Of a DNA stretch of 64,000 nucleotides, positions 13,351 to 40,627 are shown in pieces; positions within the stretch are counted from its first letter, which is position 1, and each line of letters starts with the position of its first letter. This DNA comes from a phage: NCBI GenBank assembly GCA_024673055.1, contig GCA_024673055.1_4537.1. One strand, given 5' to 3'. Under the pieces are notes generated by a model, which saw only the letters and a list, made by a program, of their open reading frames with translations, was not told where the DNA came from and did no database searches. Made by a program: the position numbers and the translations under genes.

Positions 13351-13602
13351 ATGGCGGGGTATCACATAACAGACATTAAGAAACAACCTTATGGCAGCAT
13401 AGAAAAGATTAAAGAGGAAGTAGAAGAACTTTTTGATGCTGTTGAACAGGATTGCAAAATAATGCAACTTGTGGAATTATCAGATATTATAGGTGCTGTC
13501 GAGGGAGTTTTAGAACAACAGTTCCCAGATATGACTTTACAAGACTTAATCATTATGTCCAACATTACTAAACGCGCTTTCCGCACAGGAGGAAGATCAT
13601 GA
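13351..13602 (+). CDS. small all-alpha protein, possibly MazG-like NTP pyrophosphohydrolase
   Basis: Acidic pattern KIKEEVEELFDAVE...ELSDIIGAVEGVLEQ; weak. Confidence 0.4.
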   Translation: MAGYHITDIKKQPYGSIEKIKEEVEELFDAVEQDCKIMQLVELSDIIGAVEGVLEQQFPDMTLQDLIIMSNITKRAFRTGGRS

Positions 13603-14153
13603 ACGTAGCTGTTATTGCTCAAGCTATTGATTACTACGGGCGATTTGCGGAGATGTTGGAAGTCCCTTATCTTGTAGATGCGGATATCCTTGCATATACA
13701 TTACCAGAAGGTAAAGAGGATCGCCCCTTGGGGCATCCTAATGGTAAGTTCTACGTAGCCAGTGCAGAGCAGTCTTTCCTCCAGATGGAGAAAGATGGGT
13801 TTGAATTTTCAACAGATCATCCTTATATGGCTCTAACACCTTGCTACCGAACAGAAGAAGAGTTGGATGATGTTCATTTTAACATTTTCTTAAAGTTGGA
13901 AATTATTGAGTTTTATCCAGGAGCGTCCGTCAAAGAATATGCCGAAACTATGCGCTATTTCTTTTGGACGTATTACAAAGTTCAAACTCAAATCATAGAG
14001 ACAGATATTGGTCTTGACGTGGAAGATATGTATGGGTTAGAATTAGGTTCGTTTGGGATGAGAACTTCTCCACAAGGTCATCCATATTTATACGCCACTG
14101 GTATCGCAGAGCCTAGGGCATCTATTGCAATAAAACGAGGAGGGTTATTATGA
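13599..14153 (+). CDS. hypothetical protein (184 aa)
   Basis: ORF in operon. Confidence 0.5.
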   Translation: MNVAVIAQAIDYYGRFAEMLEVPYLVDADILAYTLPEGKEDRPLGHPNGKFYVASAEQSFLQMEKDGFEFSTDHPYMALTPCYRTEEELDDVHFNIFLKLEIIEFYPGASVKEYAETMRYFFWTYYKVQTQIIETDIGLDVEDMYGLELGSFGMRTSPQGHPYLYATGIAEPRASIAIKRGGLL

Positions 14154-15496
14154 ATGTATATGCACATAAGCAAGATTTGGTAACAGCGGCAAACAATCGG
14201 GGCTTGTTCGATAGGCTTTGCAAAGCTATTGAGATTGCATATGGTTGGACTAAAGAGACAGATCCTAAACTTACAGGACAATATGCTCTTTTACACGGTT
14301 GCACAAATTTTCCATACATCTGTCACACAGTCGGGACCGATGAATTTTCTGGAGAGCCGACAGTAGGAGATAATGAACTACGTTTTACAGGAGATGCAAT
14401 GCTAGATTTAATTTTTAAGAAAACTAAAATGCTAAAAATTGAAGATGTTTACACAGACACTAGTAACCTTTCTGAAGAAGAAATTGGAGAAATGATTACT
14501 ACTTTCAATAATACAACAGGGAAGAGTTTTTGGACTAAAAGCGATGCTTCCCGTCTTAAACGAGTAGACCCTGCTATTCCAGAAGACGGTAAGAAGTATC
14601 GAAAAGTTATCTTTTACGATAAAATGGCAGGTCTGGATGCTCTACATCTTGAGTGTGGAAGCCTTGTGCCTCCGGCTGTTAGAGAACATGAATTTGCAGT
14701 TGAGGTTGAAGCACAGGAGTTTAAAGATATGTTTTATACTAAGCATGTAAGAAAAGTGGAAGATGTGGAACAACAAAAAGAGACTTTTGAACCAGAAGAC
14801 ACAGAGCCTACCTATATTCCTAATACAGGTATTCAACCTTGTGAGGACTTTGTTCAAGTCCGTTACAAAAATGGTGTTTTAGAAGTATGTAAAGCCAACC
14901 ACTTCGAATGGGAGAAATACGACAGTGAATGGCAGATTGAAGAATATTTTGTTCTCCCAAGAACAGCAAAATACCAAGCCCACATCGGAGGTAGACGCCC
15001 TTGTGATGGTCCTGTTAATGTTCTTTTTCGAAATGGGGACCAAGGAAAAGGTTTGGCAGAGACGTTTTATTGGAGCCACTCTGGAGATGGATCAGATATT
15101 GTAGGTTATATTAAACTTAACCCGTCTCCCCGTTACCGCAAGCGTCGTCAGAAGCCTCCAGTAGGTAAGAAGAGTGTCGTTCGTGTCCTTTACACTACAC
15201 AGCAGACATACACATTTAAAAATGTGGTAGACGTGCAAGTGACCGAGGAGCGAGTTTATATCCAATATGATCGTGAAGTTACAGAGGGTATTAAAGAATC
15301 GGTTACTACCGAAATTGAAAATAAGCTTGTTATGGCAATCATTGTTGAAGAAAGTAAAGTAGAGAACGGTAAAGCCTACACTGTTCGTGATAGCTTCTTG
15401 CGCAACATTGATGGAACTTGGGATTATAATGGACACGATGGGACCGCTGTAAAGAACGGTAAGATCATGGGAAGACAATTCCTCTCCAAACGATAA
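14150..15496 (+). CDS. hypothetical protein (448 aa); weak RNase III-like signature ELRFTGDAML
   Basis: Long ORF followed by a strong terminator; motif resemblance only. Confidence 0.5.
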   Translation: MNVYAHKQDLVTAANNRGLFDRLCKAIEIAYGWTKETDPKLTGQYALLHGCTNFPYICHTVGTDEFSGEPTVGDNELRFTGDAMLDLIFKKTKMLKIEDVYTDTSNLSEEEIGEMITTFNNTTGKSFWTKSDASRLKRVDPAIPEDGKKYRKVIFYDKMAGLDALHLECGSLVPPAVREHEFAVEVEAQEFKDMFYTKHVRKVEDVEQQKETFEPEDTEPTYIPNTGIQPCEDFVQVRYKNGVLEVCKANHFEWEKYDSEWQIEEYFVLPRTAKYQAHIGGRRPCDGPVNVLFRNGDQGKGLAETFYWSHSGDGSDIVGYIKLNPSPRYRKRRQKPPVGKKSVVRVLYTTQQTYTFKNVVDVQVTEERVYIQYDREVTEGIKESVTTEIENKLVMAIIVEESKVENGKAYTVRDSFLRNIDGTWDYNGHDGTAVKNGKIMGRQFLSKR

Positions 15497-15504
15497 AACT
15501 TAAA

Positions 15505-15526
15505 GGCGCACTTTGCGCCTTTTTTG
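15505..15526 (+). terminator. Rho-independent terminator GGCGCA-CTT-TGCGCC + TTTTTTG
   Basis: Hairpin 15505-15519 followed by T-run. Confidence 0.6.
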
Positions 15527-15596: not shown

Positions 15597-17411
15597 ATGA
15601 AAGATTTGTACCAAGATGTTTTTTCTTTTTTAGATCGCACTTCAGAAACATACACTAGAGAGAATGCAAACAAACCTTCCCACCTCGTTAACACGCACAG
15701 GGATCTCTTGGCGGGGATTTTAAGCAAACATATGGCAATGACACAGATACTGCCAAAAAACTTGTCAGAATGGCATACAGAAGGTTTTGGACATATTCAC
15801 GACTTGGATTATCTACTCTCTCCTCTTACAAACTGTTGTCTTGTTAATTATCAAGATATGTTAGAAAATGGTTTTAAGATCGGTGCTGCACAGATAGAAA
15901 AACCAAAATCTATTGGAGTAGCTACCACAGTGCTAACTCAAATTATCCAAGCTGTTGCCTCCAGTCAGTATGGAGGTCAGACGTGTGCGCACATTGATAA
16001 AGGTCTTAGTCCTTATGTTGAAGCTAGTTTCCTTAAAAACATGGAGATAACCAAACGTCGCTACGGTTGTTATGCAAGGAAAGAAGCCCTGGAAATGACC
16101 GAACAAGATGTATATGATGCTATGCAAACTCTCTTGTATCAGGTTAATACTTTAATGAGTGTTAATGGACAATCTCCTTTTATTACAATCAGTATGGGTC
16201 TGGATACCTCTGTTTTTGGCAGAATGATCACAGCTAATTATCTTAAAGTGCATAGTAATGGTCTAGGCAAAGATCATGTAACGCCTGTATTCCCTAAAGT
16301 TATTTTCTTTTTACAAGAAGGTGTTAACATGAAACCTAGTGATCCTAACTATGACCTTAAGCAACAAGCTTTGGCATGTTGTGCTGATCGTATTTATCCA
16401 GATTTTATTTCTGTTCCTTTGAACAAAGAAGTTACGGGATCAGCAGATGGCACTGTTACGAGTATGGGTTGTCGTTCCTTTTTGTCGTACTATGCCACCG
16501 AACAAGGAGAAAAATACGATGGACGATTCAACCTTGGAGTAGTTTCTATCAACTTACCTCTGATCGCTGCGGAAGCGAGAAGTAAAGGAGAATCTTTCAC
16601 CGATCTTCTTAATAAACATATGGAGATAGCCTACGATGCTCACATGCTACGTGTAAACCGTATCAGACATACCAAAGCATCTGAAAACCCTATTCTTTTC
16701 ATGGAAGGGGCTTTAGCGCGTTTAAATGCCAATGATGAAATTGGTGTTTTGTTTGAAGGTGGTTATGCTTCTATTAGTATTGGTTATGTAGGTCTTGCCG
16801 AAGCTTTGGAAATCCTTTATCCAGAAGAAAAAGATAAAAAGGAACTTGGTAAAAGCATTCTGCAACATATGAAAGATGTGTGTGCTGTGTTTAAAGAACG
16901 ATCTAAGCTGGCGTTTAGTCTCTATGGAACTCCAGCAGAATCCTTGTGCTATAAGTTTGCAACAGCTTTAAATGAAAAATACCCAGGTTTGGTAGAAAGA
17001 GACTATCTTACTAACTCTTTTCATCAACCTGTATGGTTGGTAACAAATCCTTTTGAAAAATGGGATTATGAAGCAGGTTTTGCACAGATTAGTAATGGTG
17101 GTAACATAAGTTATGTCGAAACACCAAACTTAAAGAATAACTTAGAAGCTTTGGAGACTTTAGTAGACTACGCTTATGAACATATTCACTATTTTGGTAT
17201 TAATCAGCCCGTGGATCAATGCTTTAAGTGTGGTTTTCATGGAGAATTTAAGGCAACGGCTAAAGGGTTTGAGTGTCCTGATTGTGGCAACCATGAAGAA
17301 GAAACTATTTCTGTAGTTAGACGTGTATCAGGGTATCTTTCTGCCCCTAATTCACGGCCTTACAACAAAGGTAAAATGCAGGAAGTTTTGCAAAGGGAGA
17401 AACATCTTTGA
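15597..17411 (+). CDS. nrdD: anaerobic ribonucleoside-triphosphate reductase (class III RNR)
   Basis: C-terminal zinc ribbon CFKCGFHG...CPDCGN and glycyl-radical motif RRVSGYL. Confidence 0.9.
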   Translation: MKDLYQDVFSFLDRTSETYTRENANKPSHLVNTHRDLLAGILSKHMAMTQILPKNLSEWHTEGFGHIHDLDYLLSPLTNCCLVNYQDMLENGFKIGAAQIEKPKSIGVATTVLTQIIQAVASSQYGGQTCAHIDKGLSPYVEASFLKNMEITKRRYGCYARKEALEMTEQDVYDAMQTLLYQVNTLMSVNGQSPFITISMGLDTSVFGRMITANYLKVHSNGLGKDHVTPVFPKVIFFLQEGVNMKPSDPNYDLKQQALACCADRIYPDFISVPLNKEVTGSADGTVTSMGCRSFLSYYATEQGEKYDGRFNLGVVSINLPLIAAEARSKGESFTDLLNKHMEIAYDAHMLRVNRIRHTKASENPILFMEGALARLNANDEIGVLFEGGYASISIGYVGLAEALEILYPEEKDKKELGKSILQHMKDVCAVFKERSKLAFSLYGTPAESLCYKFATALNEKYPGLVERDYLTNSFHQPVWLVTNPFEKWDYEAGFAQISNGGNISYVETPNLKNNLEALETLVDYAYEHIHYFGINQPVDQCFKCGFHGEFKATAKGFECPDCGNHEEETISVVRRVSGYLSAPNSRPYNKGKMQEVLQREKHL

Positions 17412-17878
17412 ATTTTGCAGGATATGAACCTGTAGATCTTATTAATGGTGAGGGAGTTAGGTGCTCCCTCTGGGTTAGTGGTTGTAGCCACGGTTGTCGT
17501 GGCTGTTTTAACCAAAAAGCCTGGTCTTATTCTTATGGGAAACCATTTACTCACGAAAATGTAGAGCAAGTTTTAAAAGATTTGTCAAGACCGTTTGTAA
17601 AAGGTTTAACAATTTTAGGAGGAGAGCCATTAGATCCGCAGAATATTTACAATGTTAAAAACCTTATAGAAAAGGTTAGAGACGTTTATGGGTCAAGCAA
17701 AGATATAATGGTGTATACAGGATATACTTTTGAGGAAGTGCCTTTGTATATTAAAAATCTTGTTGACATTATTGTAGACGGAAAGTATGAAATAAACAAT
17801 CCAACTACAAAACCTTTCAGAGGGTCAGATAATCAAAGATTATGGACCAAAACGGCAAGTGGTTGGCAATCAGATTAA
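17408..17878 (+). CDS. nrdG: anaerobic RNR activating protein (radical SAM)
   Basis: CSHGCRGCFN cysteine cluster; start overlaps nrdD stop. Confidence 0.85.
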   Translation: MNFAGYEPVDLINGEGVRCSLWVSGCSHGCRGCFNQKAWSYSYGKPFTHENVEQVLKDLSRPFVKGLTILGGEPLDPQNIYNVKNLIEKVRDVYGSSKDIMVYTGYTFEEVPLYIKNLVDIIVDGKYEINNPTTKPFRGSDNQRLWTKTASGWQSD

Positions 17879-17891
17879 CTTAGGAGGTTTC

Positions 17892-18083
17892 ATGGTTACA
17901 TATTTTGCTGTAGGAGATAGAGTAGGGACGGCAGGAGAACTTTTGAAGAACAGTGATCGGGACGTTAAGGACATTCTTGCAACCCTTGTGGATATTTTAC
18001 AAAGAAAAGAGTTGCTTTCTGATCGAGATGTTGCTAAATTACTTGATATCGGAGGAGATGAACTTCAAAGACTTCCATTTTAA
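17892..18083 (+). CDS. hypothetical small protein (63 aa)
   Basis: ATG at 17892 after TAGGAGG RBS. Confidence 0.35.
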   Translation: MVTYFAVGDRVGTAGELLKNSDRDVKDILATLVDILQRKELLSDRDVAKLLDIGGDELQRLPF

Positions 18084-18098
18084 GTGAGGAGATAAGTG

Positions 18099-18704
18099 AT
18101 GCAACATAGTGTAGTAGTTAACATGCCAAATAGCGGGGATAAATCTTTTGGTGTCCCTGCTAAAAAAGTGTGGAAAGCCCATTTTCATCTTACTTTATCT
18201 AACGTTAGTTCTGAAGAGTTGATGAAAGCAGCTAAGATTATTGGTGCCAAATGCACAACAATTGATTTACATCGGGATACAAAATCTCAACGTGATCGTA
18301 TGTTAACAAAATATCAAAGCGATCTCGACACTACTTTAATGTTGCAGTGTGTAGAAAAACTTGAGAATGCAGGTTTCAATGTTGTTCGTTACAAACTGGA
18401 ACGAATGTTTAAACATGTCGCCTGTGTTCTTTTCATGGATCTAAGTAAAGAAAATTATGGAGAAGTTCACATTAAGACTTCAGCAAGTGATCCCGAAGTA
18501 GAAACAAACTTCTTCCGTATTTCTTCTAATGCTGAAGAAATTGATTACCGATTTTATAATGCTCGCTTATATTCCGCAGAAGATAAGTTGCGTTTCAATG
18601 AAGCGTATGAGATGCTCTTGAACAGTGGGACACAGATAAAAGGCTACCACATAGAACAAGTGGTAGTGGACAGTAATCTTAATTTAGACGCATGGTGGGC
18701 TTAA
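18099..18704 (+). CDS. hypothetical protein; possible 2H-phosphoesterase-like fold
   Basis: HFHLTLS (HxTx) near N-terminus, second His-containing block GEVHIKTS; uncertain. Confidence 0.45.
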   Translation: MQHSVVVNMPNSGDKSFGVPAKKVWKAHFHLTLSNVSSEELMKAAKIIGAKCTTIDLHRDTKSQRDRMLTKYQSDLDTTLMLQCVEKLENAGFNVVRYKLERMFKHVACVLFMDLSKENYGEVHIKTSASDPEVETNFFRISSNAEEIDYRFYNARLYSAEDKLRFNEAYEMLLNSGTQIKGYHIEQVVVDSNLNLDAWWA

Positions 18705-18705
18705 T

Positions 18706-19362
18706 ATGACTATTAAACATATCTCTTTTGATGTATGGAACACACTGATCACAGCAAACTCCAATTACGCAGATATGCGAGCCTGGACTATCGCAAAATA
18801 TGGAGATATTACGGAAGTGGAAGCAAGAGCAGCTTATAAGAAGATCAAAAAGGAACTGGATAATGCAGCACTTCAAGGCAAAGCTGAGTGTGCAGCATAC
18901 GCCTGGGAAAGACTTGGTTCTGAACTTGGGATAACCCCTTGGAAGTCTGCAAAGCTTCGTTTCGAGTGTGAACAGTGGTTCCTTAAGTTTCCACCACACG
19001 TAGCCGTGGATCTGCCGATGTACTTGCTGTATCTTTCGGGACGTTATGATTTGAGTATTAAGAGCAATACCAACTTCATATCAGGAGATATCCTGCGTCG
19101 TGCTTGTAAGTTTGATAGTTGGAATTGTTTTGAGTTCACCCATTTCTCGGATGAAGCTTTACTTTGTAAACCAGATCCGCGATTCTTTGCTCGCACGCTC
19201 ACGTATTCTCCGATCCCTCTATTAGGGCACGAAGTATTGCACGTAGGCGATAGTGAAGAATACGATGGAAAATGTGTTGACTTAGGATTTAACTTCTGTC
19301 ATATTAGGAACCCTAACGACTTACTAGAGAAACTTAAAAGAGGAGAAATTGTAAATGCGTAA
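18706..19362 (+). CDS. HAD-superfamily hydrolase/phosphatase-like protein
   Basis: Motif I-like ISFDVWNTLI, motif III K-PDPRFF, motif IV HVGDSEEYD. Confidence 0.6.
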   Translation: MTIKHISFDVWNTLITANSNYADMRAWTIAKYGDITEVEARAAYKKIKKELDNAALQGKAECAAYAWERLGSELGITPWKSAKLRFECEQWFLKFPPHVAVDLPMYLLYLSGRYDLSIKSNTNFISGDILRRACKFDSWNCFEFTHFSDEALLCKPDPRFFARTLTYSPIPLLGHEVLHVGDSEEYDGKCVDLGFNFCHIRNPNDLLEKLKRGEIVNA

Positions 19363-20182
19363 TCAAACTCAAATTTTTGCAAATAAATTTGATGACCTGG
19401 AAACTGCTACTTTTGATATTAAAGATTATTCAAAATTGAAATTTGGTAGTAACCAGGCTGCGCGTCGTATGGGTAAAGAATTGGCACTTCAGTTTTTTGC
19501 TCAAGTGGCAATGAAACATATTGGGGAACAATTTGTTATAATCCCTTCTCCTTACAACCATGTGCATAATGCTGCAACAATGATGACAGATCATTTTATT
19601 AATTACTTTAATATGTTGCAATCACAATATGATCAAGGTCGTTCAGCAGAACTGGATATTATTCATCGTAAAGTTAGCTATATCAACGATTATGGTTTCT
19701 TGGATAAAGCTAGTCGTAAGAAACTTATTGATGGGGATACATTCTACTGCAACAAAGAATTCTGGGGTGATAAGAAGCTTGTGTTTATTGATGATGTAAA
19801 TATCACTGGAACTCATGAAGACAAACTGATTGAGATCCTTGATGAAAATCAAGTTAAAAATGATGTTTACTTCTTGTATTTTGCAAAATATGAAGGTAAT
19901 CAAGCAGATACCGAAGCTAAACTGAATTTTAATTATATTAATACACCAGAAGCGTTTATTAAAATGATTAATGAAGAACGTGATGCACAGTGCCTTGTTC
20001 GTCCTATTAAGTATCTTATGGGCCAAAATCACGAAGACTTCAAAATCATTCTTAGCCAATTGCCACACTACTATGTAGAGCAACTTTTCTTCGGATGTTT
20101 GGGAGAAGGTTACAACCGAATTTCAAAGTATGCTGAAAACTTTGAATTCTTGGATCGTTACACAAAACAACACATTCTGTAA
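19355..20182 (+). CDS. type I phosphoribosyltransferase-like protein
   Basis: PRPP-binding-like motif KKLVFIDDVNITGTHEDK. Confidence 0.55.
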   Translation: MRNQTQIFANKFDDLETATFDIKDYSKLKFGSNQAARRMGKELALQFFAQVAMKHIGEQFVIIPSPYNHVHNAATMMTDHFINYFNMLQSQYDQGRSAELDIIHRKVSYINDYGFLDKASRKKLIDGDTFYCNKEFWGDKKLVFIDDVNITGTHEDKLIEILDENQVKNDVYFLYFAKYEGNQADTEAKLNFNYINTPEAFIKMINEERDAQCLVRPIKYLMGQNHEDFKIILSQLPHYYVEQLFFGCLGEGYNRISKYAENFEFLDRYTKQHIL

Positions 20183-20195
20183 TAAGGAGCTAAAA

Positions 20196-20681
20196 ATGCT
20201 TAAAATGAAAACAGGTAATCTTATTGATGCCGCTAAAGCAGGTGAAGTAACTGTTATTGCTCATTGTTGCAACTGTATGTGTAATATGGGGGCAGGTATT
20301 GCCCCACAAATAAAATATGCGTTTCCATATGCATACGAAGCAGATTTAGCTACAGGAGCAGGAAACCAGAAAAAGCTTGGTTCTTTTAGTTTAGGAGAAC
20401 CAGAAGATTATCCTAATCCTATGGTATACAACCTTTATGGACAGTATCGTTATGGATACAATAGTAAAGGTCGTCAACTAGATTATGATGCACTGTATGA
20501 TGCTCTTGCAGCTATGGCAATGGACTTACACAATTACGATAAAGGAGATCAACCAGCACATAAGATTGGTCTACCTATGATTGGCGCTGGATATGCTGGA
20601 GGTAATTGGGCTATCATCCAAGTGATGATTGAAGAAACTTTAGTAAAAACAGGTCACGATGTGACTATTTATAAACTTTAA
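20196..20681 (+). CDS. macro-domain protein (ADP-ribose binding/processing)
   Basis: VIAHCCNCMCNMGAGIA and IGLPMIGAGYAGGNW resemble macro-domain Gly-rich motifs; ATG at 20196 after AAGGAG RBS. Confidence 0.6.
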   Translation: MLKMKTGNLIDAAKAGEVTVIAHCCNCMCNMGAGIAPQIKYAFPYAYEADLATGAGNQKKLGSFSLGEPEDYPNPMVYNLYGQYRYGYNSKGRQLDYDALYDALAAMAMDLHNYDKGDQPAHKIGLPMIGAGYAGGNWAIIQVMIEETLVKTGHDVTIYKL

Positions 20682-20693
20682 GAGGAGATTAGT

Positions 20694-20915
20694 ATGGGTG
20701 TTTTTGCAGGTATTGTTGCAGTGGTAAGCTTTTTTGTTATTGCTTTTATGCTTAGTTTGATTCCAGCTTGGTTACTGTTGCTGGCTTACAACTATGTTGC
20801 TGAAGTTATGGGTCATGCAGATATCACTGTCCCAGTAACCTTCTGGACCGTGGTTTGTGTTTCGTTTATTCTGGCTGTATTACGAGGAATCTTTTCCTCT
20901 CATTCAACAAAATAA
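20694..20915 (+). CDS. small membrane protein (2 predicted TM helices)
   Basis: Hydrophobic segments GIVAVVSFFVIAFMLSLIPAWLLLLAY and VTFWTVVCVSFILAVL. Confidence 0.45.
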   Translation: MGVFAGIVAVVSFFVIAFMLSLIPAWLLLLAYNYVAEVMGHADITVPVTFWTVVCVSFILAVLRGIFSSHSTK

Positions 20916-20918
20916 GTG

Positions 20919-20946
20919 TTGACATAGTTCTTAAAAAGAGTAAGAT
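20919..20946 (+). promoter_or_regulatory. sigma70-like promoter TTGACA-16-TAAGAT upstream of terC; 5'UTR hairpin GCGGGGA-ATAGT-TCCCCGC at 20959-20977
   Basis: Direct reading. Confidence 0.45.
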
Positions 20947-20994
20947 ATATCACATGAAGCGGGGAATAGTTCCCCGCAAAGAGAGGAGAAAAGA

Positions 20995-21969
20995 ATGCAA
21001 CTTGGTTTCCCAATTATTGATGTAGTTGTTTTAGTTGGTATTTTGGCATTGTCTATTGGTATCGATTTCTTTGGTCATAAAGAGAATAAAGAAATTGGAA
21101 TTAAATCTGCTTTGCTTTGGTCTGTTTTTTGGATTGCTTTAGCTTTAGGATATTACGCATTCATTTGGGTAGAACATGGTAAAGAGTTTGCCGCGCTTTT
21201 CCTAAGTGGCTATGTGTTGGAAAAGAGTCTTTCTGTAGATAACCTGATGGTGTTCATGGCAATTTTTGCAAGCTTTGGAATTAAGAGCACACATCTCCAA
21301 CATAAGATTTTACTTTGGGGGATTGCAGGAGCCATTGTCTTCCGAGGTATTTTTGTTGCAGCAGGGACCGCTTTGTTTAACCTTCATTGGTCGGTCCAAG
21401 TGTTGTTCGGTTTGATTGTAGCTTGGTCTGCCGTGGCTATCATCAAAGGTGGTGACGAAGAAGAGGATATTGATTACTCTAAGCATTGGGCTGTTCGTTT
21501 AGTAGGTAAAGTTCTGCCTGTGCACAATGCACTGGATGGTGAAAAGTTCATCACCATTAAGAATGGTATTAAATATGCAACTCCTGCTCTTCTTTGTGTG
21601 TTTGTTATTGAGCTTACAGATATTGTCTTCTCTTTTGATTCAGTTCCGGCTGTGATCGGTGTGACACAAGAACCTCTGCTAGTTTATTCTGCAATGCTGA
21701 TGGCTGTTCTTGGTTTACGTGCACTTTTCTTTGTGTTAAGTGTGGCTGTGAAATATCTGGTTCACTTAGAGAAAGCTGTTGCTGTGGTTCTGGTGTTTGT
21801 CGGTGCTAAACTTATGTATCACCCGTTCGGTGAAACACTTCATGCCAAATGGTCATTCCTCCCGCATGATATTTCCCCTAACGTAAGTCTGATGATTGTT
21901 CTAGGCACATTAGCTCTTGGTGTTATTGCAAGTTTTATCTTCCCTGAAAAAGAAGAAGCTGCTGTTTAA
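20995..21969 (+). CDS. terC: TerC-family integral membrane protein
   Basis: Multiple TM segments; EKSLSVDNLMVF and ELTDIVFSFDSVPAVIGVT match TerC signature blocks. Confidence 0.75.
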   Translation: MQLGFPIIDVVVLVGILALSIGIDFFGHKENKEIGIKSALLWSVFWIALALGYYAFIWVEHGKEFAALFLSGYVLEKSLSVDNLMVFMAIFASFGIKSTHLQHKILLWGIAGAIVFRGIFVAAGTALFNLHWSVQVLFGLIVAWSAVAIIKGGDEEEDIDYSKHWAVRLVGKVLPVHNALDGEKFITIKNGIKYATPALLCVFVIELTDIVFSFDSVPAVIGVTQEPLLVYSAMLMAVLGLRALFFVLSVAVKYLVHLEKAVAVVLVFVGAKLMYHPFGETLHAKWSFLPHDISPNVSLMIVLGTLALGVIASFIFPEKEEAAV

Positions 21970-21975
21970 TAGATG

Positions 21976-22000
21976 AGCCTCCTTCGGGAGGCTATTTTAT
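21976..22000 (+). terminator. Rho-independent terminator AGCCTCC-TTCG-GGAGGCT + ATTTTAT
   Basis: Hairpin directly after terC stop. Confidence 0.55.
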
Positions 22001-22362: not shown

Positions 22363-22530
22363 AATACTTGTTGGTTGTGTTTGAAAATATCTGTTTTGCA
22401 ATAGGGTTGTTTGTTGTAATTTTTGTATTGACAAGCGTAATCAACGGCAGTAAAGTGAGTTTATACCGAGATGGAGAGCAACTTTATTGCTTCTCTGGAG
22501 ATTTCAAACATAGATGTATTAATAGTCAAA

Positions 22531-22983
22531 ATGAGGAAAGCAAATATGAAAAAACTAGCCCTGATTTTAATTGGTTGTATCTTTTTAACAGCTTGCGAGG
22601 ATGAAACAAATCCTGCACAATACCAACAACCTCCTCAACAATACGCTCAACAAGGATCTGACGGAGATACAACTATTATCAACAATGGTGGCGGTTCTAG
22701 TAGTAGCGGTGTTGGTGAGTTTGCTACAGGTATGTTGTTAGGGCATATGATGAGTGGTGGTAGTAATCGTAACAGTGGAGATTATAACGATAACAGAACG
22801 ATTATTAATAAGCATTATAATACACCTAAACCGAAAACTAATTTTTATGGTAAGCCTAAACAAGAGATAAAAACTTATGAAAAGCCGAGACAAACTTTTA
22901 AAACAAATAGTAGCTATACAACTCGTAAATCTTACAATAGCCCTTTAAGTAAAAAGAGTTCATCTCGTAGCAAGCGACGTTAA
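22531..22983 (+). CDS. putative lipoprotein (Gly/Ser/Asn-rich, basic C-terminus)
   Basis: Signal peptide with lipobox LTAC; start may be 22531 or 22546. Confidence 0.5.
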   Translation: MRKANMKKLALILIGCIFLTACEDETNPAQYQQPPQQYAQQGSDGDTTIINNGGGSSSSGVGEFATGMLLGHMMSGGSNRNSGDYNDNRTIINKHYNTPKPKTNFYGKPKQEIKTYEKPRQTFKTNSSYTTRKSYNSPLSKKSSSRSKRR

Positions 22984-23594: not shown

Positions 23595-24185
23595 ATGCAT
23601 ACCGAGAGAGACTTGCAACTCTTGTGGTGGGAAGTGATGCAGGAAATAAAAGAAGATTTTCCTGTTTACTACAACATGTTACGTGAAGCAGGATATAAAG
23701 CTTGTGTTAGAAACAAAGTGAATAACTCTTTCGGTTGGTGCAACTACCGAGATAAAATTGTTGTTGTAAATTGGCACTTGCATAAGAACTCCACAAGAGA
23801 TATGATCGTGGATACAATGAAGCACGAAATTGCTCATGCTATTGATGGTTGTATGGGTAAGTTTAGTAGGCACGGTGCTCATTGGCAAAAACTGGCAGCA
23901 GAATTAGGGGCTAATCCTAAAGCCACTTCCAAAGAGCCGTTGAACCACGAATATAAATATGTTCTTGTTCTGGTAGATAGGTTTGCGACAAGATGTGTTA
24001 GAGGTTATAATCGTAAACCTAATCGCATGTACCCAGGTAAGCAACCTAATATGTGGTTGAAATCAGATAAAGAAGGGACCGAAGGAAAATTATGGTTGTA
24101 TAAATGGGACGATTGGGTTAAAGTAGCTAAAGAGTACGGTGTTTCACCATATATAAGAGATGCAGAAGAGGAGAATGAAGAATGA
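23595..24185 (+). CDS. SprT-like zinc metallopeptidase
   Basis: HEIAHAIDG (HExxH) followed by HGAHWQKLAAELG, as in SprT-like proteins. Confidence 0.55.
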   Translation: MHTERDLQLLWWEVMQEIKEDFPVYYNMLREAGYKACVRNKVNNSFGWCNYRDKIVVVNWHLHKNSTRDMIVDTMKHEIAHAIDGCMGKFSRHGAHWQKLAAELGANPKATSKEPLNHEYKYVLVLVDRFATRCVRGYNRKPNRMYPGKQPNMWLKSDKEGTEGKLWLYKWDDWVKVAKEYGVSPYIRDAEEENEE

Positions 24186-25294
24186 CAAGTCCATTTTTAA
24201 AAGCAGCTACTGGTGGTCAGAAGAAGCCTGAAATGAGCGTATTTGCTGCAACAACAGATGCAAGTAAATCTGTATTCGCTCCAAGCGTGTTAGATGCCAG
24301 TCCTGTTTATGCACCAGCGGCACCGCAAGAAGTTCCAGTTTTGCCTTCTATGACCCGACAAGAGATTGAAGAGATTGGGGCAGAGGCAGGAACAACCTTG
24401 CGTTCCTTGAATGCCGAGGTGTTAAAACATCAACGTAGTAATCAAGGCGATCAGATGAGTGAACGACTCACAGCTTTGATTAAACAGGCAAAACAACTTG
24501 ATCCAAACTCTATTAAACAAAGCAAGGGTATTACTAAACTCATTAAAAAAGTTATGGGTATGAAAGAAGACCTGTTCGGGGAGTTTGATAATGTTAATAA
24601 CCGTATTGAAGAGTTGGTAAAGAACCTTCAAATGGATATTCGCAAAGAAGAAGATTCCTTAGTATATCTTGAAAAGCTACATCAAGCTATTGGACAATAT
24701 GCTGCAAGTTTGAACCGAGATATGCAGCTTCTAACAGCAACCTATGAAAAAGAAGAACAAGCTTTGGCTGCTCTTCCAGAAGATGCAGTAGAACAGCGAC
24801 AAGTGATCCGAGATACTTTGGATCTTCTGGAGATTCGTATTGCAGATTTAAAAGCATTGCGCCTACTGTGTGTCCAAATGGGACCGCGTGTACAAGGTAT
24901 GCAAAAAGTTTCTGCAAGCTTAATGCGATCTGCGCGTAACATAGTAAATAATGTTATTCCTGCTTACTCTGCTAACTTCTCAATGTATATCGAGAGCTTA
25001 CGTCAAATGAAAGCAGCAGAGACGCAGAATAACGTTCTTGATGAATTTAACCTGGCAATTAAACTGGGTAGCGATCTTGCCACACAGAATCAGATCGAAG
25101 CAGCAGCACTGGCTAACCGTCAAGTGTTGGATATTGAAACTCTGCGTCACGATCAGGAAAACTTGGTTAAGATGTTGGAAGAAACTAACCGCATCAATAC
25201 GGAAGCCCGTGCTGCTCGTGTTGATTATATTAATGAAGTTCAGTCTCTGGAAGACGGGATGGTAGCTGCTGTGAAACGAGGGCTTGGTAAATGA
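24182..25294 (+). CDS. coiled-coil protein, possibly TelA-like toxic-anion-resistance family
   Basis: 370-aa helical protein inside a Ter-like gene neighbourhood; family assignment by size and context only. Confidence 0.4.
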   Translation: MTSPFLKAATGGQKKPEMSVFAATTDASKSVFAPSVLDASPVYAPAAPQEVPVLPSMTRQEIEEIGAEAGTTLRSLNAEVLKHQRSNQGDQMSERLTALIKQAKQLDPNSIKQSKGITKLIKKVMGMKEDLFGEFDNVNNRIEELVKNLQMDIRKEEDSLVYLEKLHQAIGQYAASLNRDMQLLTATYEKEEQALAALPEDAVEQRQVIRDTLDLLEIRIADLKALRLLCVQMGPRVQGMQKVSASLMRSARNIVNNVIPAYSANFSMYIESLRQMKAAETQNNVLDEFNLAIKLGSDLATQNQIEAAALANRQVLDIETLRHDQENLVKMLEETNRINTEARAARVDYINEVQSLEDGMVAAVKRGLGK

Positions 25295-26887: not shown

Positions 26888-27682
26888 ATGTCCGAGAAAA
26901 TCAGCCTGAAAAAACGTCAAGAAAACCTTGCTTTCTCTCTGAAAAAGAATAAGAACCTGAATGAAGGTAAGATTGTTCTTCGTGTAGCATGTGCTCTAGA
27001 TATTTCTGGTAGTATGCATGGTCTATATTCTAGTGGGGTAGTGAGTGATTTTGTAGGTAAACTGCTTCCTTTTGGTATGCTGTTCGACGATAATCAACAA
27101 ATTGATATGTGGGCCTTCAATACGAGTTCCCAAGAGCTTACTCCAGCAACAGCAGACGTTTACGATGACTATGTTGGTAAATGTATGCGTAATGTTCGTA
27201 TCGGAGGTGGAACAAATTACGCCCCTGTAATGGCAGATATCTACGATGAGTATTTTGGCACTGTTACCAAATATATTACCACTAAACAAGTGGTACAAGA
27301 GGAGGCTCCAAAGAAAGGCTTCTTTAATCGTCTGCTTGGTAAAACTGAAACAGTGTCTGTAGAGCGTGAAAAAGTTGTAGCTGTATCTGAACCAGGTGCT
27401 GACGTTACCCCTGGTGTTGTATTCTTCCAGACGGATGGTGAGAATGGTGATCCTAGTGCTGTTCGTCGTCTTATTGAAGAGAATAAGAATAAACCTATTT
27501 ATTGGTTCATGGTTGGCGTTGGTAATGAGAAGTTTGGCTTCCTGAAAGAACTGGCAAATGCTTATGATAATGTTGGTTTTATTGGCATTAAAGATTTAGA
27601 CTTGACAGATTCAGAGCTTTATGACAAACTCTTATCTGAAGAGTTCGGAGAGTGGGTTGTTAAAGTAGGTGCTAAAAAATGA
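26888..27682 (+). CDS. von Willebrand factor A (vWA) domain protein, TerY-like, with TerD-like N-terminal leader
   Basis: MIDAS motifs DISGSM, GGTN, QTDGE; N-terminus KISLKK...SLKK resembles TerD N-terminus. Confidence 0.7.
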   Translation: MSEKISLKKRQENLAFSLKKNKNLNEGKIVLRVACALDISGSMHGLYSSGVVSDFVGKLLPFGMLFDDNQQIDMWAFNTSSQELTPATADVYDDYVGKCMRNVRIGGGTNYAPVMADIYDEYFGTVTKYITTKQVVQEEAPKKGFFNRLLGKTETVSVEREKVVAVSEPGADVTPGVVFFQTDGENGDPSAVRRLIEENKNKPIYWFMVGVGNEKFGFLKELANAYDNVGFIGIKDLDLTDSELYDKLLSEEFGEWVVKVGAKK

Positions 27683-28192: not shown

Positions 28193-28795
28193 ATGACTGA
28201 TAAAATTTCCCTGAAAAAAGGCTCTAGCGAAAAAATTTCCCTGAAGAAAGTTGCTCCGGCTCTGAAAGAACTGCGCCTGGAATTCTCTTGGAAATCTGAT
28301 TCTAAACTGGATCTGGATGTAAGTGCACTGGTTTGTCGTCACAATGCCACTGGCAATCCTGAAATGCTGTCTGCACGTCACCTGGTTTGCTATGCTAACA
28401 AGTTTGATCCTGAACGTTCTACCTTCGCTGGTGACGATGTTCGTGATGGAACTGGCAGCATGGAGCAGATTGATATTACTCTGGCTAAAATCTCTCCTGA
28501 TGCACAAGAGATTGCCTTTGTTCTGACCATTGATGATGATACAGGTCTGAAACGTTTTGGTCATGCTTCTGAAGGTATGCTTAAAATCTTTGACTCCGAG
28601 CGCAATGTTGAAATTCTGGATTTTGACTTCCTGGCTCCTGAAGTAGCTGGCAACACAATCTGCCACGTGGCTTCCTTGGTTCGTGAAGATGGGGAATGGA
28701 AGCTGAAAGCATATGGTGTAGGTAAAGCTGGTCTGGATATTTGTGATGTGGTGATGGCCTTCGGTGGTAAAAAAGAATGGTATGAATGTCCATAA
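28193..28795 (+). CDS. terD: TerD-family protein
   Basis: Duplicated KISLKK leader, DLDVSAL, AGDDVRDGTGS, AFVLTIDDD, DGEWKLKAYGVG align to TerD-family blocks; CTG/CGT/GGT-dominated codon usage. Confidence 0.8.
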   Translation: MTDKISLKKGSSEKISLKKVAPALKELRLEFSWKSDSKLDLDVSALVCRHNATGNPEMLSARHLVCYANKFDPERSTFAGDDVRDGTGSMEQIDITLAKISPDAQEIAFVLTIDDDTGLKRFGHASEGMLKIFDSERNVEILDFDFLAPEVAGNTICHVASLVREDGEWKLKAYGVGKAGLDICDVVMAFGGKKEWYECP

Positions 28796-30117: not shown

Positions 30118-30681
30118 ATGATTTATTATATTACTCCCTATCTGACAGGAAATATCGGCAAGGCTATCAATGAAGCCATTGCCGTTCTTCCAGATGATAG
30201 TTGGGTGTGTTTAAGAGATACCGATACAATGTTCCTCCTACCTGATCAACCATCTATGCTTGAAGAGCTTGTTATGTCAAACCCGCCTTTTGATGTAATA
30301 GGTGCAACTTGTAACAGGTTAGGCAGTGGTTATCAGCTTTTCTCTAACCAAATTAACGATGATCCAGATATTCTAAACCATATAGAATATGCTAAGATTG
30401 CAAAAGAATATCATAAAGTGAGTGTTGAAGAAGTTCCTTTCGGAACACCTCTGGCAGGTTTCTTTTTGCTTTTTAGAAAATCATTGTGGAATGAAATTCC
30501 TTTCGAAGAAAAATCTATCCAATTCGACTTAATTTTCTCTCGCACTTTACATGAAAAAGGAAAGAGGTTAGGATTGATGCGGGGAATGTATCTGTTTCAC
30601 ATTTACAGATTAGGTCAAACAAATCCTCAACGGTCTATACATCATTTATTACACTGTCACGATCACAGTAAAACTATTTAG
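30118..30681 (+). CDS. hypothetical protein, possibly glycosyltransferase-like
   Basis: LRDTDTMF (DxD-like); weak. Confidence 0.4.
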   Translation: MIYYITPYLTGNIGKAINEAIAVLPDDSWVCLRDTDTMFLLPDQPSMLEELVMSNPPFDVIGATCNRLGSGYQLFSNQINDDPDILNHIEYAKIAKEYHKVSVEEVPFGTPLAGFFLLFRKSLWNEIPFEEKSIQFDLIFSRTLHEKGKRLGLMRGMYLFHIYRLGQTNPQRSIHHLLHCHDHSKTI

Positions 30682-30689
30682 GAGAGAAA

Positions 30690-31373
30690 ATGGAAAATAT
30701 TAAAATCGGAGTGGGTGTTATCACTGTAGGTGTCCGTCCACTTAAAGACTACCTTGTAACAGATCCACGTGCAGATTTTCGAGTATTCAACGATCCAGAC
30801 CGTAAAGGTGTAGCTTATGCCAGGAATGAACTTATGCACCAGTTTTATGAAGAAGGTTATGATTATTGGTTTATTTTTGACGACGATTGCTACCCAGTCA
30901 TGGAAGGATGGGAAACATACTTTGTAGATCAAGCTGTTTCTGGAGGATGGGATTTCTTTGGTATGCCGGAGTACTTCAAAGATAAAGTTGTTGGAAGCAA
31001 AGGAGAAGTTATTCTCTGGGAACTTGCAATGTGTCAATTTGCAATGTATTCTCGTGCCGTTGTTGAGAAGATGGGTTATTTCCGCCCTTACACTCACGGT
31101 TATGGTTTTGAAGATGCCGAATGGGGACACCGTTTGAAAGCTGCTGGTTTGAATCATGGTATTCAGGCAACACCTTGTCCACTTCGTATCATGGCTTATA
31201 TCCACCCAGACGATGTTTTTGGAAACAATCCTATGCCTTTTGCTAATCTGACAAAAGAAGAGAAAGAAGCTGCTATCGGGATTAACTGGGAAGAATATAA
31301 AGCATCTTTAGAGGATATTAAAAATGGGAAAATCCGAATTTCCTATGAGGAGGCACTGGCACATGTCAAATAA
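30690..31373 (+). CDS. GT-A fold glycosyltransferase-like protein
   Basis: FIFDDDCYP (DxD), YGFEDAEWGHRL. Confidence 0.55.
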   Translation: MENIKIGVGVITVGVRPLKDYLVTDPRADFRVFNDPDRKGVAYARNELMHQFYEEGYDYWFIFDDDCYPVMEGWETYFVDQAVSGGWDFFGMPEYFKDKVVGSKGEVILWELAMCQFAMYSRAVVEKMGYFRPYTHGYGFEDAEWGHRLKAAGLNHGIQATPCPLRIMAYIHPDDVFGNNPMPFANLTKEEKEAAIGINWEEYKASLEDIKNGKIRISYEEALAHVK

Positions 31374-32310
31374 AAAATGGTCTAAACTAAAAATTGATGC
31401 GAAACCTCACAGCGGTTGTGACTATCATCGTATTGTTATGCCACTTAACAACCATAATCTTCAACCTAAGAAAGATGTTGTTGTGTTTAACCGTATCCAC
31501 TCTAAAGGTGCAGAATACGTTTTATCTTTGAAACGTCAAGGTGTTAAGATTGTTGTAGATTTAGATGATTTCTACCAACTTAATCCAGAACATTATTTAG
31601 CAAGTCTATACGAGTCAAACACTCATACTATTGTAGCTATGGTTAAGCTTGCTGATGTGGTTATTGTGACTACAGAATATTTGGCATATAAGATCCGTCA
31701 CTTAAATAGGAATGTTGTTGTGATCCGAAATGCACTTCCTTTTGATAGTGGACAATTCACTTTGTCAAATGATCGTTCATCCGGTACCCCTGTTGTATGG
31801 GCTGGAGGTGCTAGTCACGAACCAGATTTACGACTAGTCTCTAATACTTTCGATGATGAGCTTCTTACTATTGCGGGATATGAAGCATCGCAGAGCATCA
31901 CGGGACAAGAGTGGATTAAGATTCGCAGAAATTTACCAAATGCTAAATATAAAGCTGCTGTAAAAGATTTAGATAATTACATGAGTGTTTACGAAAGTCA
32001 TGCTATTGCTATAGCTCCTTTGGTAGATAATGATTTTAATAATTGTAAAAGTAATCTCAAAATCCTAGAAGCTGGAGCAAAGGGTATTCCGATTGTTTGT
32101 TCTAAGGTATTACCTTATTTTAACCCTGTAGATGCTCGTGCTGTTGCTTACGCAGAGAACAAAGCAGAATGGCATTACGAAATTGTTAAGCTTCTTCGCA
32201 ATCCAAACTATCGGGAAGATCGTGGCTTGTTCTTGGCTGAACATGTTCGAACACATTATAATCTGGCAGATGCAAATGAGTTGCGACGCCAGGTTATTGA
32301 AAGTTTGTAG
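31363..32310 (+). CDS. GT-B fold glycosyltransferase-like protein, paralog 1
   Basis: SNLKILEAGAKGIPIVCS resembles GT4-type E-A-x-A-x-G-x-P motif; ATG at 31363 after GAGGAGG. Confidence 0.55.
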   Translation: MSNKKWSKLKIDAKPHSGCDYHRIVMPLNNHNLQPKKDVVVFNRIHSKGAEYVLSLKRQGVKIVVDLDDFYQLNPEHYLASLYESNTHTIVAMVKLADVVIVTTEYLAYKIRHLNRNVVVIRNALPFDSGQFTLSNDRSSGTPVVWAGGASHEPDLRLVSNTFDDELLTIAGYEASQSITGQEWIKIRRNLPNAKYKAAVKDLDNYMSVYESHAIAIAPLVDNDFNNCKSNLKILEAGAKGIPIVCSKVLPYFNPVDARAVAYAENKAEWHYEIVKLLRNPNYREDRGLFLAEHVRTHYNLADANELRRQVIESL

Positions 32311-32317
32311 GTGAAGT

Positions 32318-33262
32318 ATGGGACAAATAATTCTTGACAATCGTAACGGAATCAATTATAGTGTCTGCGATTTCCATAGGGTAGTGCTGCCTTACTCAAG
32401 GCAGTTCTCTTCACAACCTAAATACAACGTTTTCGTTTTTAACGGAGTGCCAACAAAAGGTAAAGAGGGCTTTTTAGCCCTTAAAAACCTAGGCTTTAAA
32501 ATGGTTATGGATTTGGATGACTCTTTAGTTATTCCAAAAGGACACATGTTAGAAGGTATTTTTGAATCAGGTATTCGTGAACATTTAAAATGGTTTTTAG
32601 AGCACAGCGATCTTGTTACAACTACGACACCTGCTTTGCAAGTTGAACTTTCACAATACAATGATAATGTGCACATAATCCCTAATGGACTTCCTTACGA
32701 TGAAGGTCAATTTGTGTTGACCCGTGATCGCTACTCCAAAACTCCATTAGTCTGGGCTGGAAGTGAAACACATAAACAAGATTTGGCTATCTTACCTGAT
32801 TTTGGTAAAGATCTTACAATATGTGGTTTTCGTAGGGATTCTGAAGTTTTAAGTAGTCGTGAATGGTCTGTAATCAGAGAAAATGTAGCACCAACTTGTG
32901 TTTATGAAGGTGTAAGACCATATGCCAACTACATGGAATCTTACGATGGTCATCAAATCAGTCTTGCGCCATTGATTGATAACGTGTTTAATAATGCAAA
33001 AAGCAATCTTAAAATTCTTGAGGCAGGTGCTAAGGGTTTACCTTTGATCTGTTCTCCTCGTGAGAATTATCATACGCAAGAGTTTAAAGATTTGTTATTC
33101 TTTGCTGAAACACCTTCCGAGTGGAAAGATATTACGGAATACTTATTAAGTGCTCCCGATGTTTGCATGGAGAAAGGATTAGCATTAGCTAAGTATGTCA
33201 GGACTCATTATCACATTGATGTGTTGAATGAGCGTCGTAGACTTTTATTTGAGGAGCTATAA
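32318..33262 (+). CDS. GT-B fold glycosyltransferase-like protein, paralog 2
   Basis: Collinear similarity to 31363-32310 (VVFN..., DLDD, SNLKILEAGAKGLPLICS, YVRTHY). Confidence 0.55.
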   Translation: MGQIILDNRNGINYSVCDFHRVVLPYSRQFSSQPKYNVFVFNGVPTKGKEGFLALKNLGFKMVMDLDDSLVIPKGHMLEGIFESGIREHLKWFLEHSDLVTTTTPALQVELSQYNDNVHIIPNGLPYDEGQFVLTRDRYSKTPLVWAGSETHKQDLAILPDFGKDLTICGFRRDSEVLSSREWSVIRENVAPTCVYEGVRPYANYMESYDGHQISLAPLIDNVFNNAKSNLKILEAGAKGLPLICSPRENYHTQEFKDLLFFAETPSEWKDITEYLLSAPDVCMEKGLALAKYVRTHYHIDVLNERRRLLFEEL

Positions 33263-40408: not shown

Positions 40409-40627
40409 ATGCGTAAATTAGTGAGCTTTAATGTTTCAATTTTTGTTGATGAACAAAATGAAGATGTTATTAAGGGTCTTGCAAATAAGATTGCAGGTGG
40501 AATGACGGAAGCTGAAGTGTGGGAAGAATGTGCTCGACTTTATGAGGAAGGTGTTATTGAGGTCTTGGGGGATGAGATTAATATGGACGATGTTGTAAAA
40601 GTAACTGTGGAGCGTATCAATGACTAA
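40409..40627 (+). CDS. hypothetical acidic protein (72 aa)
   Basis: ORF with AAGGAG RBS. Confidence 0.4.
   Translation: MRKLVSFNVSIFVDEQNEDVIKGLANKIAGGMTEAEVWEECARLYEEGVIEVLGDEINMDDVVKVTVERIND

Follow-up and report, generated by a model that had tools for sequence, protein, structure and literature searches.

Four consecutive genes (positions 18,099 to 20,681) in a 64,000-nucleotide stretch of phage DNA, the whole of which we call the window (contig GCA_024673055.1_4537.1 of GenBank assembly GCA_024673055.1), raise the question of whether they encode one pathway or several unrelated functions. An earlier reading made from the letters alone (the sequence-only reading) described a possible 2H phosphoesterase, here called open reading frame (ORF) A, followed by a HAD hydrolase, a type I phosphoribosyltransferase (PRTase), and a macro domain protein, and proposed that together they process ADP-ribose or a phosphoribosylated metabolite. 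Our best explanation, held with moderate confidence, is that the region is a mosaic of three units (a Ter-associated HAD-PRTase pair, the macro gene, and ORF A) and not one pathway. As judged from its sequence, the HAD-PRTase pair is a member of the already described Ter-associated metabolite module, found here in a coliphage; the macro and ORF A genes are best seen as independent, orphan antitoxin-like genes around that module. Gene structure, family membership, neighborhoods, and separate distributions are observed, and every substrate and biological role proposed below is one that we infer.

The window comes from a phAPEC8-like Escherichia coli phage (genus Phapecoctavirus, Stephanstirmvirinae). 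For positions 17400 to 22000, 69 complete phage records gave matches that span 80% or more of this stretch with 90 to 99% identity, almost all from Escherichia Phapecoctavirus, and the finding therefore belongs to a known, sequenced phage group. Annotations of this region in the relatives mostly read "hypothetical," "hydrolase," "putative orotate phosphoribosyltransferase," or "phosphatase."

The PRTase matched PF15610 over its full length (144.1 bits against a threshold of 28.7; E value of 7e-42). Its loop for binding phosphoribosyl pyrophosphate (PRPP) is VFIDDVNITGTHE, in which D146, D147, T151, G152, and T153 were invariant among 22 diverse homologues of 46 to 66% identity. A profile search of PDB returned no close solved structure, only insignificant matches to the PRPP loop of HPRT. 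The PF15610 match and the intact loop bear out the earlier type I PRTase-like call. The HAD protein scored under the Pfam threshold, belongs to phrog_14393 ("hydrolase"), and resembles PDB entry 2om6 over its full length; its catalytic motifs (D8, SNT, K155, and GDSEEYD) were conserved in 19 homologues. With four motifs kept, the phrog membership, and the likeness to 2om6, the HAD hydrolase call is also well founded.

To place the pair in context, loci around PRTase_3 homologues were collected from metagenomes, IMG/VR, and plasmids, and their ORFs were searched with the window proteins (loci are numbered L001 onward). A scan of viral contigs with a single PRTase sequence gave zero matches, and an alignment query gave matches. 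In 23 of 23 PRTase-carrying loci, including phage contigs of 200 to 350 kb and Rhizobium plasmids, the HAD gene lies directly upstream of the PRTase gene. HAD-PRTase is the only invariant pair among the four genes.

Downstream of the four genes, and absent from the sequence-only reading, lie the Ter genes TerC, TelA, vWA-TerF, and TerD. TerC starts 0.8 kb downstream of the HAD-PRTase pair, and the other three lie within 8.6 kb. All phAPEC8-like and phi92-like loci had Ter genes at a distance of no more than 10 kb, as did L003, L004, L015, L016, L018, and L019; at L011, genes for TerB and an R2K-clade ATP-grasp protein adjoin the pair, upstream of the HAD gene. PF15610 is reportedly among the PRTase families defined by Anantharaman, Iyer, and Aravind in their 2012 study of Ter systems. 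Signal synthesis in Ter systems is assigned to "nucleobase PRTases and HAD fold phosphoesterases," and such systems occur in some phages (PMC7824862); the synthesis enzymes and their occurrence in phages are also summarized in PMC8115787. TerB and TerD are regarded as sensors, TerC as the membrane component, and TelA and vWA-TerF as submembrane components, and a fairly complete version is found in Acinetobacter phage ME3 "and certain other related smaller tailed phages" (PMC7824862). The enzyme combination had seemed unrecognizable from the sequence alone; computational studies of 2012 and 2021 had already placed it within Ter systems (PMC7824862).

The notion of a phosphoribosylated metabolite survives in this setting, since the PRTase-HAD pair can fairly be read as pointing to a ribosylated metabolite whose synthesis depends on PRPP. 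The PRTase would join a base or another nucleophile to PRPP to give a ribotide, from which the HAD enzyme would remove the 5′-phosphate to leave a nucleoside-like product. That Ter proteins sense a nucleoside-like metabolite is a prediction of the literature. Here, the product would act with TerD as the ligand-binding protein, TerC in the membrane, and TelA and vWA-TerF, and the outcome could be an altered envelope or ion state of the infected cell that, for example, excludes other phages. Competition with superinfecting phages has been proposed as a possible role of phage Ter systems (PMC7824862; see also PMC8115787).

Motif I of the HAD protein (near 18727 to 18747) qualifies this scheme. 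The position two residues after the nucleophilic Asp (D+2) was Trp in 18 of 19 homologues and Tyr in the remaining one (L016), never Asp, and PDB entry 2om6 carries the same FDVWNTL as the Ter-linked HAD. In HAD phosphatases, the Asp at D+2 is the general acid/base, and its absence is unusual; D-x-W/Y in place of D-x-D in motif I is typical of dehalogenase-type HADs. Judging from this motif, the Ter-linked HAD may carry out chemistry other than ordinary phosphomonoester hydrolysis.

What Ter clusters do has been a standing question since the 1990s, although they have been linked to resistance to tellurite, colicins, and phages. No compound is known to have been assigned to the nucleoside-like signal predicted for them. 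The cluster of phAPEC8-like and phi92-like coliphages is compact, with one each of PRTase, HAD, TerC, TerD, TelA, and vWA-TerF. Because these phages grow on E. coli K-12, they are well suited to a search for the metabolite.

The distributions of the four genes in phages differ. The PRTase was found in 157 GenBank phage records, with a HAD or hydrolase annotated under or beside the match in most of the rows listed. Relatives of the macro protein occurred in 2503 records, including those of T-even, Felixounavirus-like, and Pseudomonas phages. ORF A was found in 187 phage records, 110 of them from Rheinheimera Barbavirus; Rheinheimera is absent from the PRTase organism tally, and in the single Barbavirus locus inspected, ORF A is by itself within a group of small early genes. 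The macro gene adjoins HAD-PRTase only in the phAPEC8-like and phi92-like groups and lies 7 kb away in L015. Among the fetched loci, ORF A occurred only in the phAPEC8-like ones (L001, L002, and L007 to L009); L006 and L010, both phi92-like, carry HAD, PRTase, macro, and TerC genes and lack ORF A. These separate distributions indicate that the four genes are not an obligate unit.

The proposal that the four enzymes process ADP-ribose or ADP-ribose-1′′-phosphate and rebuild NAD+ or a precursor, so as to counter host defenses that deplete NAD+ or ADP-ribosylate targets, is, in our judgment, very unlikely to be right. Macro domains do bind ADP-ribose, some ORF A relatives are fused to Nudix domains, the gene of another ORF A relative overlaps an NAD kinase gene in the vicinity of NAMPT, and the four genes share one orientation with little space between them, all of which would suit such a route. 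Nevertheless, the PRTase is of the type I, Ter-linked PF15610 family and not of the NAMPT or Namat type, and a 2H reaction, as in the classical Appr>p route, finds no support in the fold of ORF A. In the close relative EF1-1, genes resembling those for NAMPT, NMNAT, or PRPP synthetase are absent from the annotation of positions 1 to 50000 and 81000 to 136953 of its 147884-bp record, about 127 kb of 148 kb, which cover window positions from about 8400 to 64000. HAD-PRTase occurs without macro and ORF A in most contexts, and vice versa, and travels instead with Ter genes. A single ADP-ribose/NAD+ pathway built from the four enzymes is thus not upheld.

The same comparisons bear on whether ORF A and the macro protein are accessory enzymes of an extended Ter system that, for example, trim, recycle, or switch off the ribosylated signal. 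phAPEC8-like phages keep the gene order from ORF A through TerC, phi92-like phages keep it from HAD through TerC, and there is a single terminator-bounded block; in L015, an unrelated 198-kb phage contig, the Ter cluster has a related macro gene 7 kb away, and macro domains accept ribose-phosphate ligands. However, outside the phAPEC8-like and phi92-like groups, the macro gene was nearby in 1 of 13 distinct PRTase loci and ORF A in 0 of 13. The macro subfamily is also ~16-fold more widespread in phages than the PRTase, and ORF A has a bacterial partner of its own, AbiEii. An extended Ter system therefore seems to us rather unlikely, if less so than NAD+ rebuilding.

The macro domain call of the sequence-only reading was sound. 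The protein scored just under the Pfam threshold, matched phrog_335 (3e-53), and among solved structures matched SCO6735 (5e3b; 4e-12), BT1257 (2fg1; 2e-7), TARG1 (4j5r; 6e-5), and DarG (5m31; 7e-5). HMMER alignments placed Gln at the position of TARG1 Lys84 and Ala at that of Asp125, a pattern shared with SCO6735 and BT1257, and showed equivalents of four functional residues of SCO6735 (His24, Asn27, Gln85, and Gly128), with Cys at the place of a fifth, Val25. A long basic loop follows the Gln. DarG models of NCBIfam and PADLOC also matched, the former at 34.8 bits, far under its cutoff of 250, and Gln likewise replaces the catalytic Lys80 of DarG. SCO6735, DarG, and TARG1 all take ADP-ribose off thymidine in DNA. 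SCO6735 removes the thymidine-linked ADP-ribose that DarT puts on DNA and rescues cells from DarT, an activity for which His24, Asn27, Gln85, and Gly128 are important (PMC9411070). DNA de-ADP-ribosylation is favored for the phage protein because it has SCO6735-type residues: these suggest that it most likely strips host DarT-type ADP-ribose from thymidine in phage DNA. Alternatively, it would degrade a soluble ADP-ribose derivative; a survey of viral NAD+ and ADP-ribose enzymes argues that stand-alone phage macro domains mostly target such compounds (PMC9503650). A role against ADP-ribosylating immunity, raised in the sequence-only reading, is plausible for the macro domain.

DarTG is a phage defense system, and the phage proteins known to counter it, AdfA and AdfB, are small and act by binding; neither is a macro domain (PMC10760071). 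Should the phage macro protein act on DNA modified by DarT, it would counter DarT as an enzyme, in contrast to binding-type AdfA and AdfB. It could instead serve the phage's own Sir2-like protein by clearing O-acetyl-ADP-ribose or ADP-ribose adducts, given that EF1-1 encodes a Sir2 NAD-dependent deacetylase elsewhere in its genome and that the solved relative TARG1/OARD1 is an O-acetyl-ADP-ribose deacetylase. The Sir2 gene, however, lies far from the macro gene, and the macro protein is closer to SCO6735 than to TARG1 and lacks TARG1 Lys84 and Asp125; we regard service to Sir2 as quite improbable.

ORF A proved to be the most interesting remainder, with a confident and unmatched fold, enzyme-like conservation, and both toxin-antitoxin and phage contexts. 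A word-indexed search found 34 close relatives, in whose alignment H28, H30, T32, R97, K99, E101, E122, H124, K126, R151, R156, E186, and D191 were invariant. An exhaustive profile search raised the number of relatives to 257. In an alignment of 125 of them, R97, K99, E101, E122, H124, S142, E186, and D191 were invariant and H30, T32, K51, D66, T70, Y120, N144, R156, D197, and W200 nearly so. The AlphaFold model made from this alignment (predicted local distance difference test score [pLDDT] of 90.3; predicted template-modeling score [pTM] of 0.83) has two beta-alpha-beta-beta-alpha-beta-like halves, a tandem ferredoxin-like arrangement, and no helix-turn-helix. Sequence and profile searches of PDB chains gave zero matches, as did Pfam and NCBIfam for ORF A, and no Pfam AbiEi family matched ORF A or the 125 relatives. 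Among the latter, 13 carry an N-terminal Nudix domain, one a SpoT/RelA-type HD_4 domain, and one a helix-turn-helix. A narrower ORF A alignment searched against genome contigs yielded 5 loci in metagenome-assembled genomes.

ORF A had been called a possible 2H phosphoesterase from an HxTx motif, and we rejected this assignment. The first 2H-like motif is present (H30-L-T32), but the second reads H124-I-K126, with mostly Lys as its third residue in the 125 relatives, and the model failed a test for the LigT-like fold. Support for 2H was limited to two marginal Pfam hits among the 125 relatives. An HKD (HxKxxxxD) reading of H124-K126-D131 was also rejected, since the Asp is not conserved.

Two PADLOC AbiEi models matched ORF A (PDLC02277, 6.8e-13; PDLC02279, 1.3e-11), with residues 29 to 200 aligned to positions 4 to 192 of 195. 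In Streptomyces rimosus plasmid pSRIMHP, a Deinococcus plasmid, and a metagenome contig, ORF A relatives overlap a downstream AbiEii/AbiGii nucleotidyltransferase gene by 4 nucleotides. In an alphaproteobacterial metagenome-assembled genome (L035, 4947 to 7576), the ORF that follows the relative joins AbiEii to a T4 Rnl1-type RNA ligase, which suggests an RNA end-directed toxin or repair module, and on the Deinococcus plasmid an RNA ligase gene adjoins the pair. Across the AbiEii-linked clade, the ORF A relative lies upstream of AbiEii in 4 of 4 contexts. The chain that ties the phage protein to this clade runs from the ORF A profile to protein P0274 (3e-8) and from P0274 to the plasmid proteins (38 to 47% identity), together with the PADLOC match. 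No AbiEii toxin gene lies beside phage ORF A. A 197-amino-acid ORF at 40620 to 41213, apparently the "nucleotidyltransferase" of EF1-1, was considered as an AbiEii-like partner and set aside after it gave zero Pfam matches.

The neighborhoods of ORF A relatives in phages look counter-defense-like in their gene content, which includes Acb1, NADAR, NAD kinase, and NAMPT. On a 110-kb phage contig (L024, 10001 to 11021), a relative of 37% identity, the most distant of the close ones, overlaps the start of a gene for Acb1, an anti-CBASS protein of the 2H family, and a NADAR gene lies 4 kb downstream. Another phage relative lies in an early region with DUF4326 and SIR2 genes. At L028 and L029 (729 to 7125), a fusion of HD_4 and ORF A domains overlaps an NAD kinase gene downstream of genes for NAMPT and a long Nudix protein; this region looks like a counter-defense island combining NAD+ salvage with an ORF A domain.

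Polar residues are conserved alike in the AbiEii-linked, Nudix-fused, and phage clades, a pattern that points to a site of catalysis or ligand binding and not to a surface that binds the toxin. One report describes MenT/AbiEii toxins as extending tRNA acceptor ends (PMC10435456), from which ORF A is supposed to act on a nucleotide or RNA end; its conserved His, Lys, Arg, and Glu residues and the Nudix and HD fusions would fit such an enzyme. Phage ORF A would then neutralize AbiEii-type toxins. That it is an orphan antitoxin-like counter-defense gene, a view drawn from profiles and gene contexts, is the least secure part of our explanation, and an uncurated family of about 260 cluster representatives that pairs with AbiEii in bacteria and is an orphan in phages is a candidate for a new anti-defense function. 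We raise more tentatively the possibility that ORF A is a new enzymatic antitoxin domain, with a site composed of H-x-T, R-x-K-x-E, E-x-H-x-K, and S-x-N, that undoes the damage done by AbiEii/MenT toxins. It might do so, for example, by trimming nucleotides added to tRNA 3′ ends, and phages might carry orphan or Nudix- or HD-fused copies against AbiE-type abortive infection; we consider this reading as a whole unlikely.

Several observations weigh against the mosaic explanation or its parts. Translational coupling and the order ORF A-HAD-PRTase-macro-membrane protein-TerC, kept across L007 to L009 with PRTases 62 to 79% identical, mean that a functional link among the four genes is possible. 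Of the 13 distinct PRTase loci that belong to neither the phAPEC8-like nor the phi92-like group, 5 had no Ter gene found within 10 kb, and simple dephosphorylation by the HAD enzyme is not assured because Trp or Tyr replaces the general acid/base Asp. The macro protein has Cys where SCO6735 has Val25 and, with 161 residues that form a macro domain only, lacks the C-terminal DarT-binding domain of DarG. The phage ORF A clade is farther from the AbiEii-linked clade than from the Nudix-fused clade, and the ORF A profile matched the plasmid proteins weakly (hhalign probabilities of 50% and 6%).

The features of the region are listed in Table 1. As described earlier, four consecutive genes stand beside nrdDG; all four plus-strand ORFs were confirmed and are conserved, and nrdD and nrdG lie upstream in the same block. 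ORF A has a GAGGAG ribosome-binding site, confidence is low for its first 21 residues, and many homologues start ~20 residues later. One base separates ORF A from the HAD gene, the HAD and PRTase genes overlap by 8 nucleotides, and these three genes are translationally coupled; the macro gene starts 13 nucleotides past the PRTase stop codon with its own AAGGAG site. The only strong terminator-like hairpins in the stretch scanned were those at 15502 to 15522 and 21976 to 21993, so that nrdD, nrdG, the small ORF, the four genes, the membrane-like protein gene, and TerC form one block. The promoter-like site in the TerC leader is near consensus, and the hairpin after it, GCGGGGAATAGTTCCCCGC, is perfect, with 8 bp rich in G+C. 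Mn2+ riboswitch leaders are common on bacterial TerC-family genes; a riboswitch search of the leader found zero Rfam family matches anywhere in the window.

Table 1. Features of the nrdD-to-TerD region of the window
Feature	Position	Strand	Basis or remark
Terminator-like hairpin, bidirectional; upstream bound of block	15502..15522	.	9-bp stem, 5 G-C pairs, T run on both strands
nrdD, anaerobic ribonucleotide reductase large subunit	15597..17411	+	ORF; so annotated in close relatives
nrdG, activating protein	17408..17878	+	4-nt overlap with nrdD; annotated in close relatives
Small conserved ORF, phrog_17780	17892..18083	+	Upstream of cluster in all phAPEC8-like and phi92-like loci
ORF A, PADLOC-labeled AbiEi family, tandem ferredoxin-like model	18099..18704	+	Profile, model, neighborhood
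HAD-superfamily hydrolase, Ter-linked PRTase_3 partner; motif I FDVWNTL	18706..19362	+	phrog, PDB likeness, position
Type I phosphoribosyltransferase, PF15610 (PRTase_3, "ComF-like")	19355..20182	+	E 7e-42; invariant DDVxITGTHE
Stand-alone macro domain, ALC1-like class, SCO6735/BT1257 subtype	20196..20681	+	PDB, phrog, NCBIfam, PADLOC matches
Small hydrophobic, membrane-like protein, phrog_16065	20694..20915	+	Always between macro and TerC in this phage group
Promoter-like site (TTGACA, 16 nt, TAAGAT), then hairpin GCGGGGAATAGTTCCCCGC, in TerC leader	20919..20968	+	
TerC-family integral membrane protein	20995..21969	+	PF03741, E 3e-40
Terminator-like hairpin ending nrdD-to-TerC block	21976..21993	+	
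Lipoprotein-like protein, lipobox LTAC	22471..22983	+	Homologue in distant Ter-carrying phage locus
SprT-like metalloprotease	23595..24185	+	PF10263, E 4e-9; 4-nt overlap with telA
TelA-like protein	24182..25294	+	PF05816, E 3e-33
vWA domain, TerF C-terminal type	26888..27682	+	PF10138, E 2e-37
TerD-domain protein	28193..28795	+	PF02342, E 3e-28

Two genes among the Ter genes deserve mention. The lipoprotein-like gene between TerC and TelA encodes a signal peptide, a Gly/Ser/Asn-rich middle, and a basic tail; it has a homologue on the distant Ter-carrying phage contig L018 (14017 to 14580) and may be an unrecognized part of phage Ter clusters. The SprT-like metalloprotease gene keeps its position before telA in L001, L002, L008, and L009. 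Upstream of nrdD, two ORFs at 13599 to 15496 have labels that look doubtful: one of 184 amino acids labeled "histidyl tRNA synthetase" (phrog_4806) and one of 448 amino acids labeled "ribonucleotide reductase" (phrog_15930), whose sequence is unlike that of standard ribonucleotide reductases. At 30118 to 33262, four successive ORFs are labeled glycosyltransferases in EF1-1, which carries dTDP-rhamnose synthesis genes elsewhere in its genome; together, they could serve sugar modification of a host or phage polymer. Near-identical phAPEC8-like genomes have been deposited as "Campylobacter phage B15" (MG065650.1) and "Acinetobacter phage ABPW7" (OP562383.1), host labels that are probably unreliable.

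Among known systems, the phage NAD+ reconstitution pathways NARP1 and NARP2, reportedly described by Osterman et al. in 2024, invite comparison. The four genes resemble NARP1 (Adps and Namat) and NARP2 (Nampt and Nmnat) in being phage encoded, in their PRPP-related chemistry, and in their place in an early gene region (PMC9503650), but the defining NARP enzymes are not among them, and the PRTase here is from a different family. ORF A is similar to the 2H proteins LigT, CPDase, and Acb1 in size (a core of ~177 residues) and in its pseudo-twofold repeat, of which the first half carries H-x-T on a strand and the second half has a conserved His on the corresponding strand. With AbiE and MenAT modules, it shares the upstream, overlapping antitoxin position held by its bacterial relatives and the matches to two PADLOC AbiEi models; in contrast to AbiEi antitoxins, it has no winged-helix DNA-binding domain, a different predicted fold, and no adjacent toxin gene. 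The macro protein has its best solved match in SCO6735, and the catalytic Lys of TARG1 and DarG is Gln in it; it differs from SCO6735 and DarG in its low identity to them and in coming from a lytic phage without a toxin partner. Compared with the predicted Ter metabolite module, the set in the window is reduced to one PRTase, without an ATP-grasp protein or TIM-barrel lyase and with no TerB found, and it follows nrdDG, with genes for a macro domain and an AbiEi-labeled protein interspersed. It nonetheless shares with that module the same PF15610 PRTase family, the adjacent HAD, and the linked TerC, TerD, TelA, and vWA-TerF genes, and it is carried by a virulent phage, as in ME3.

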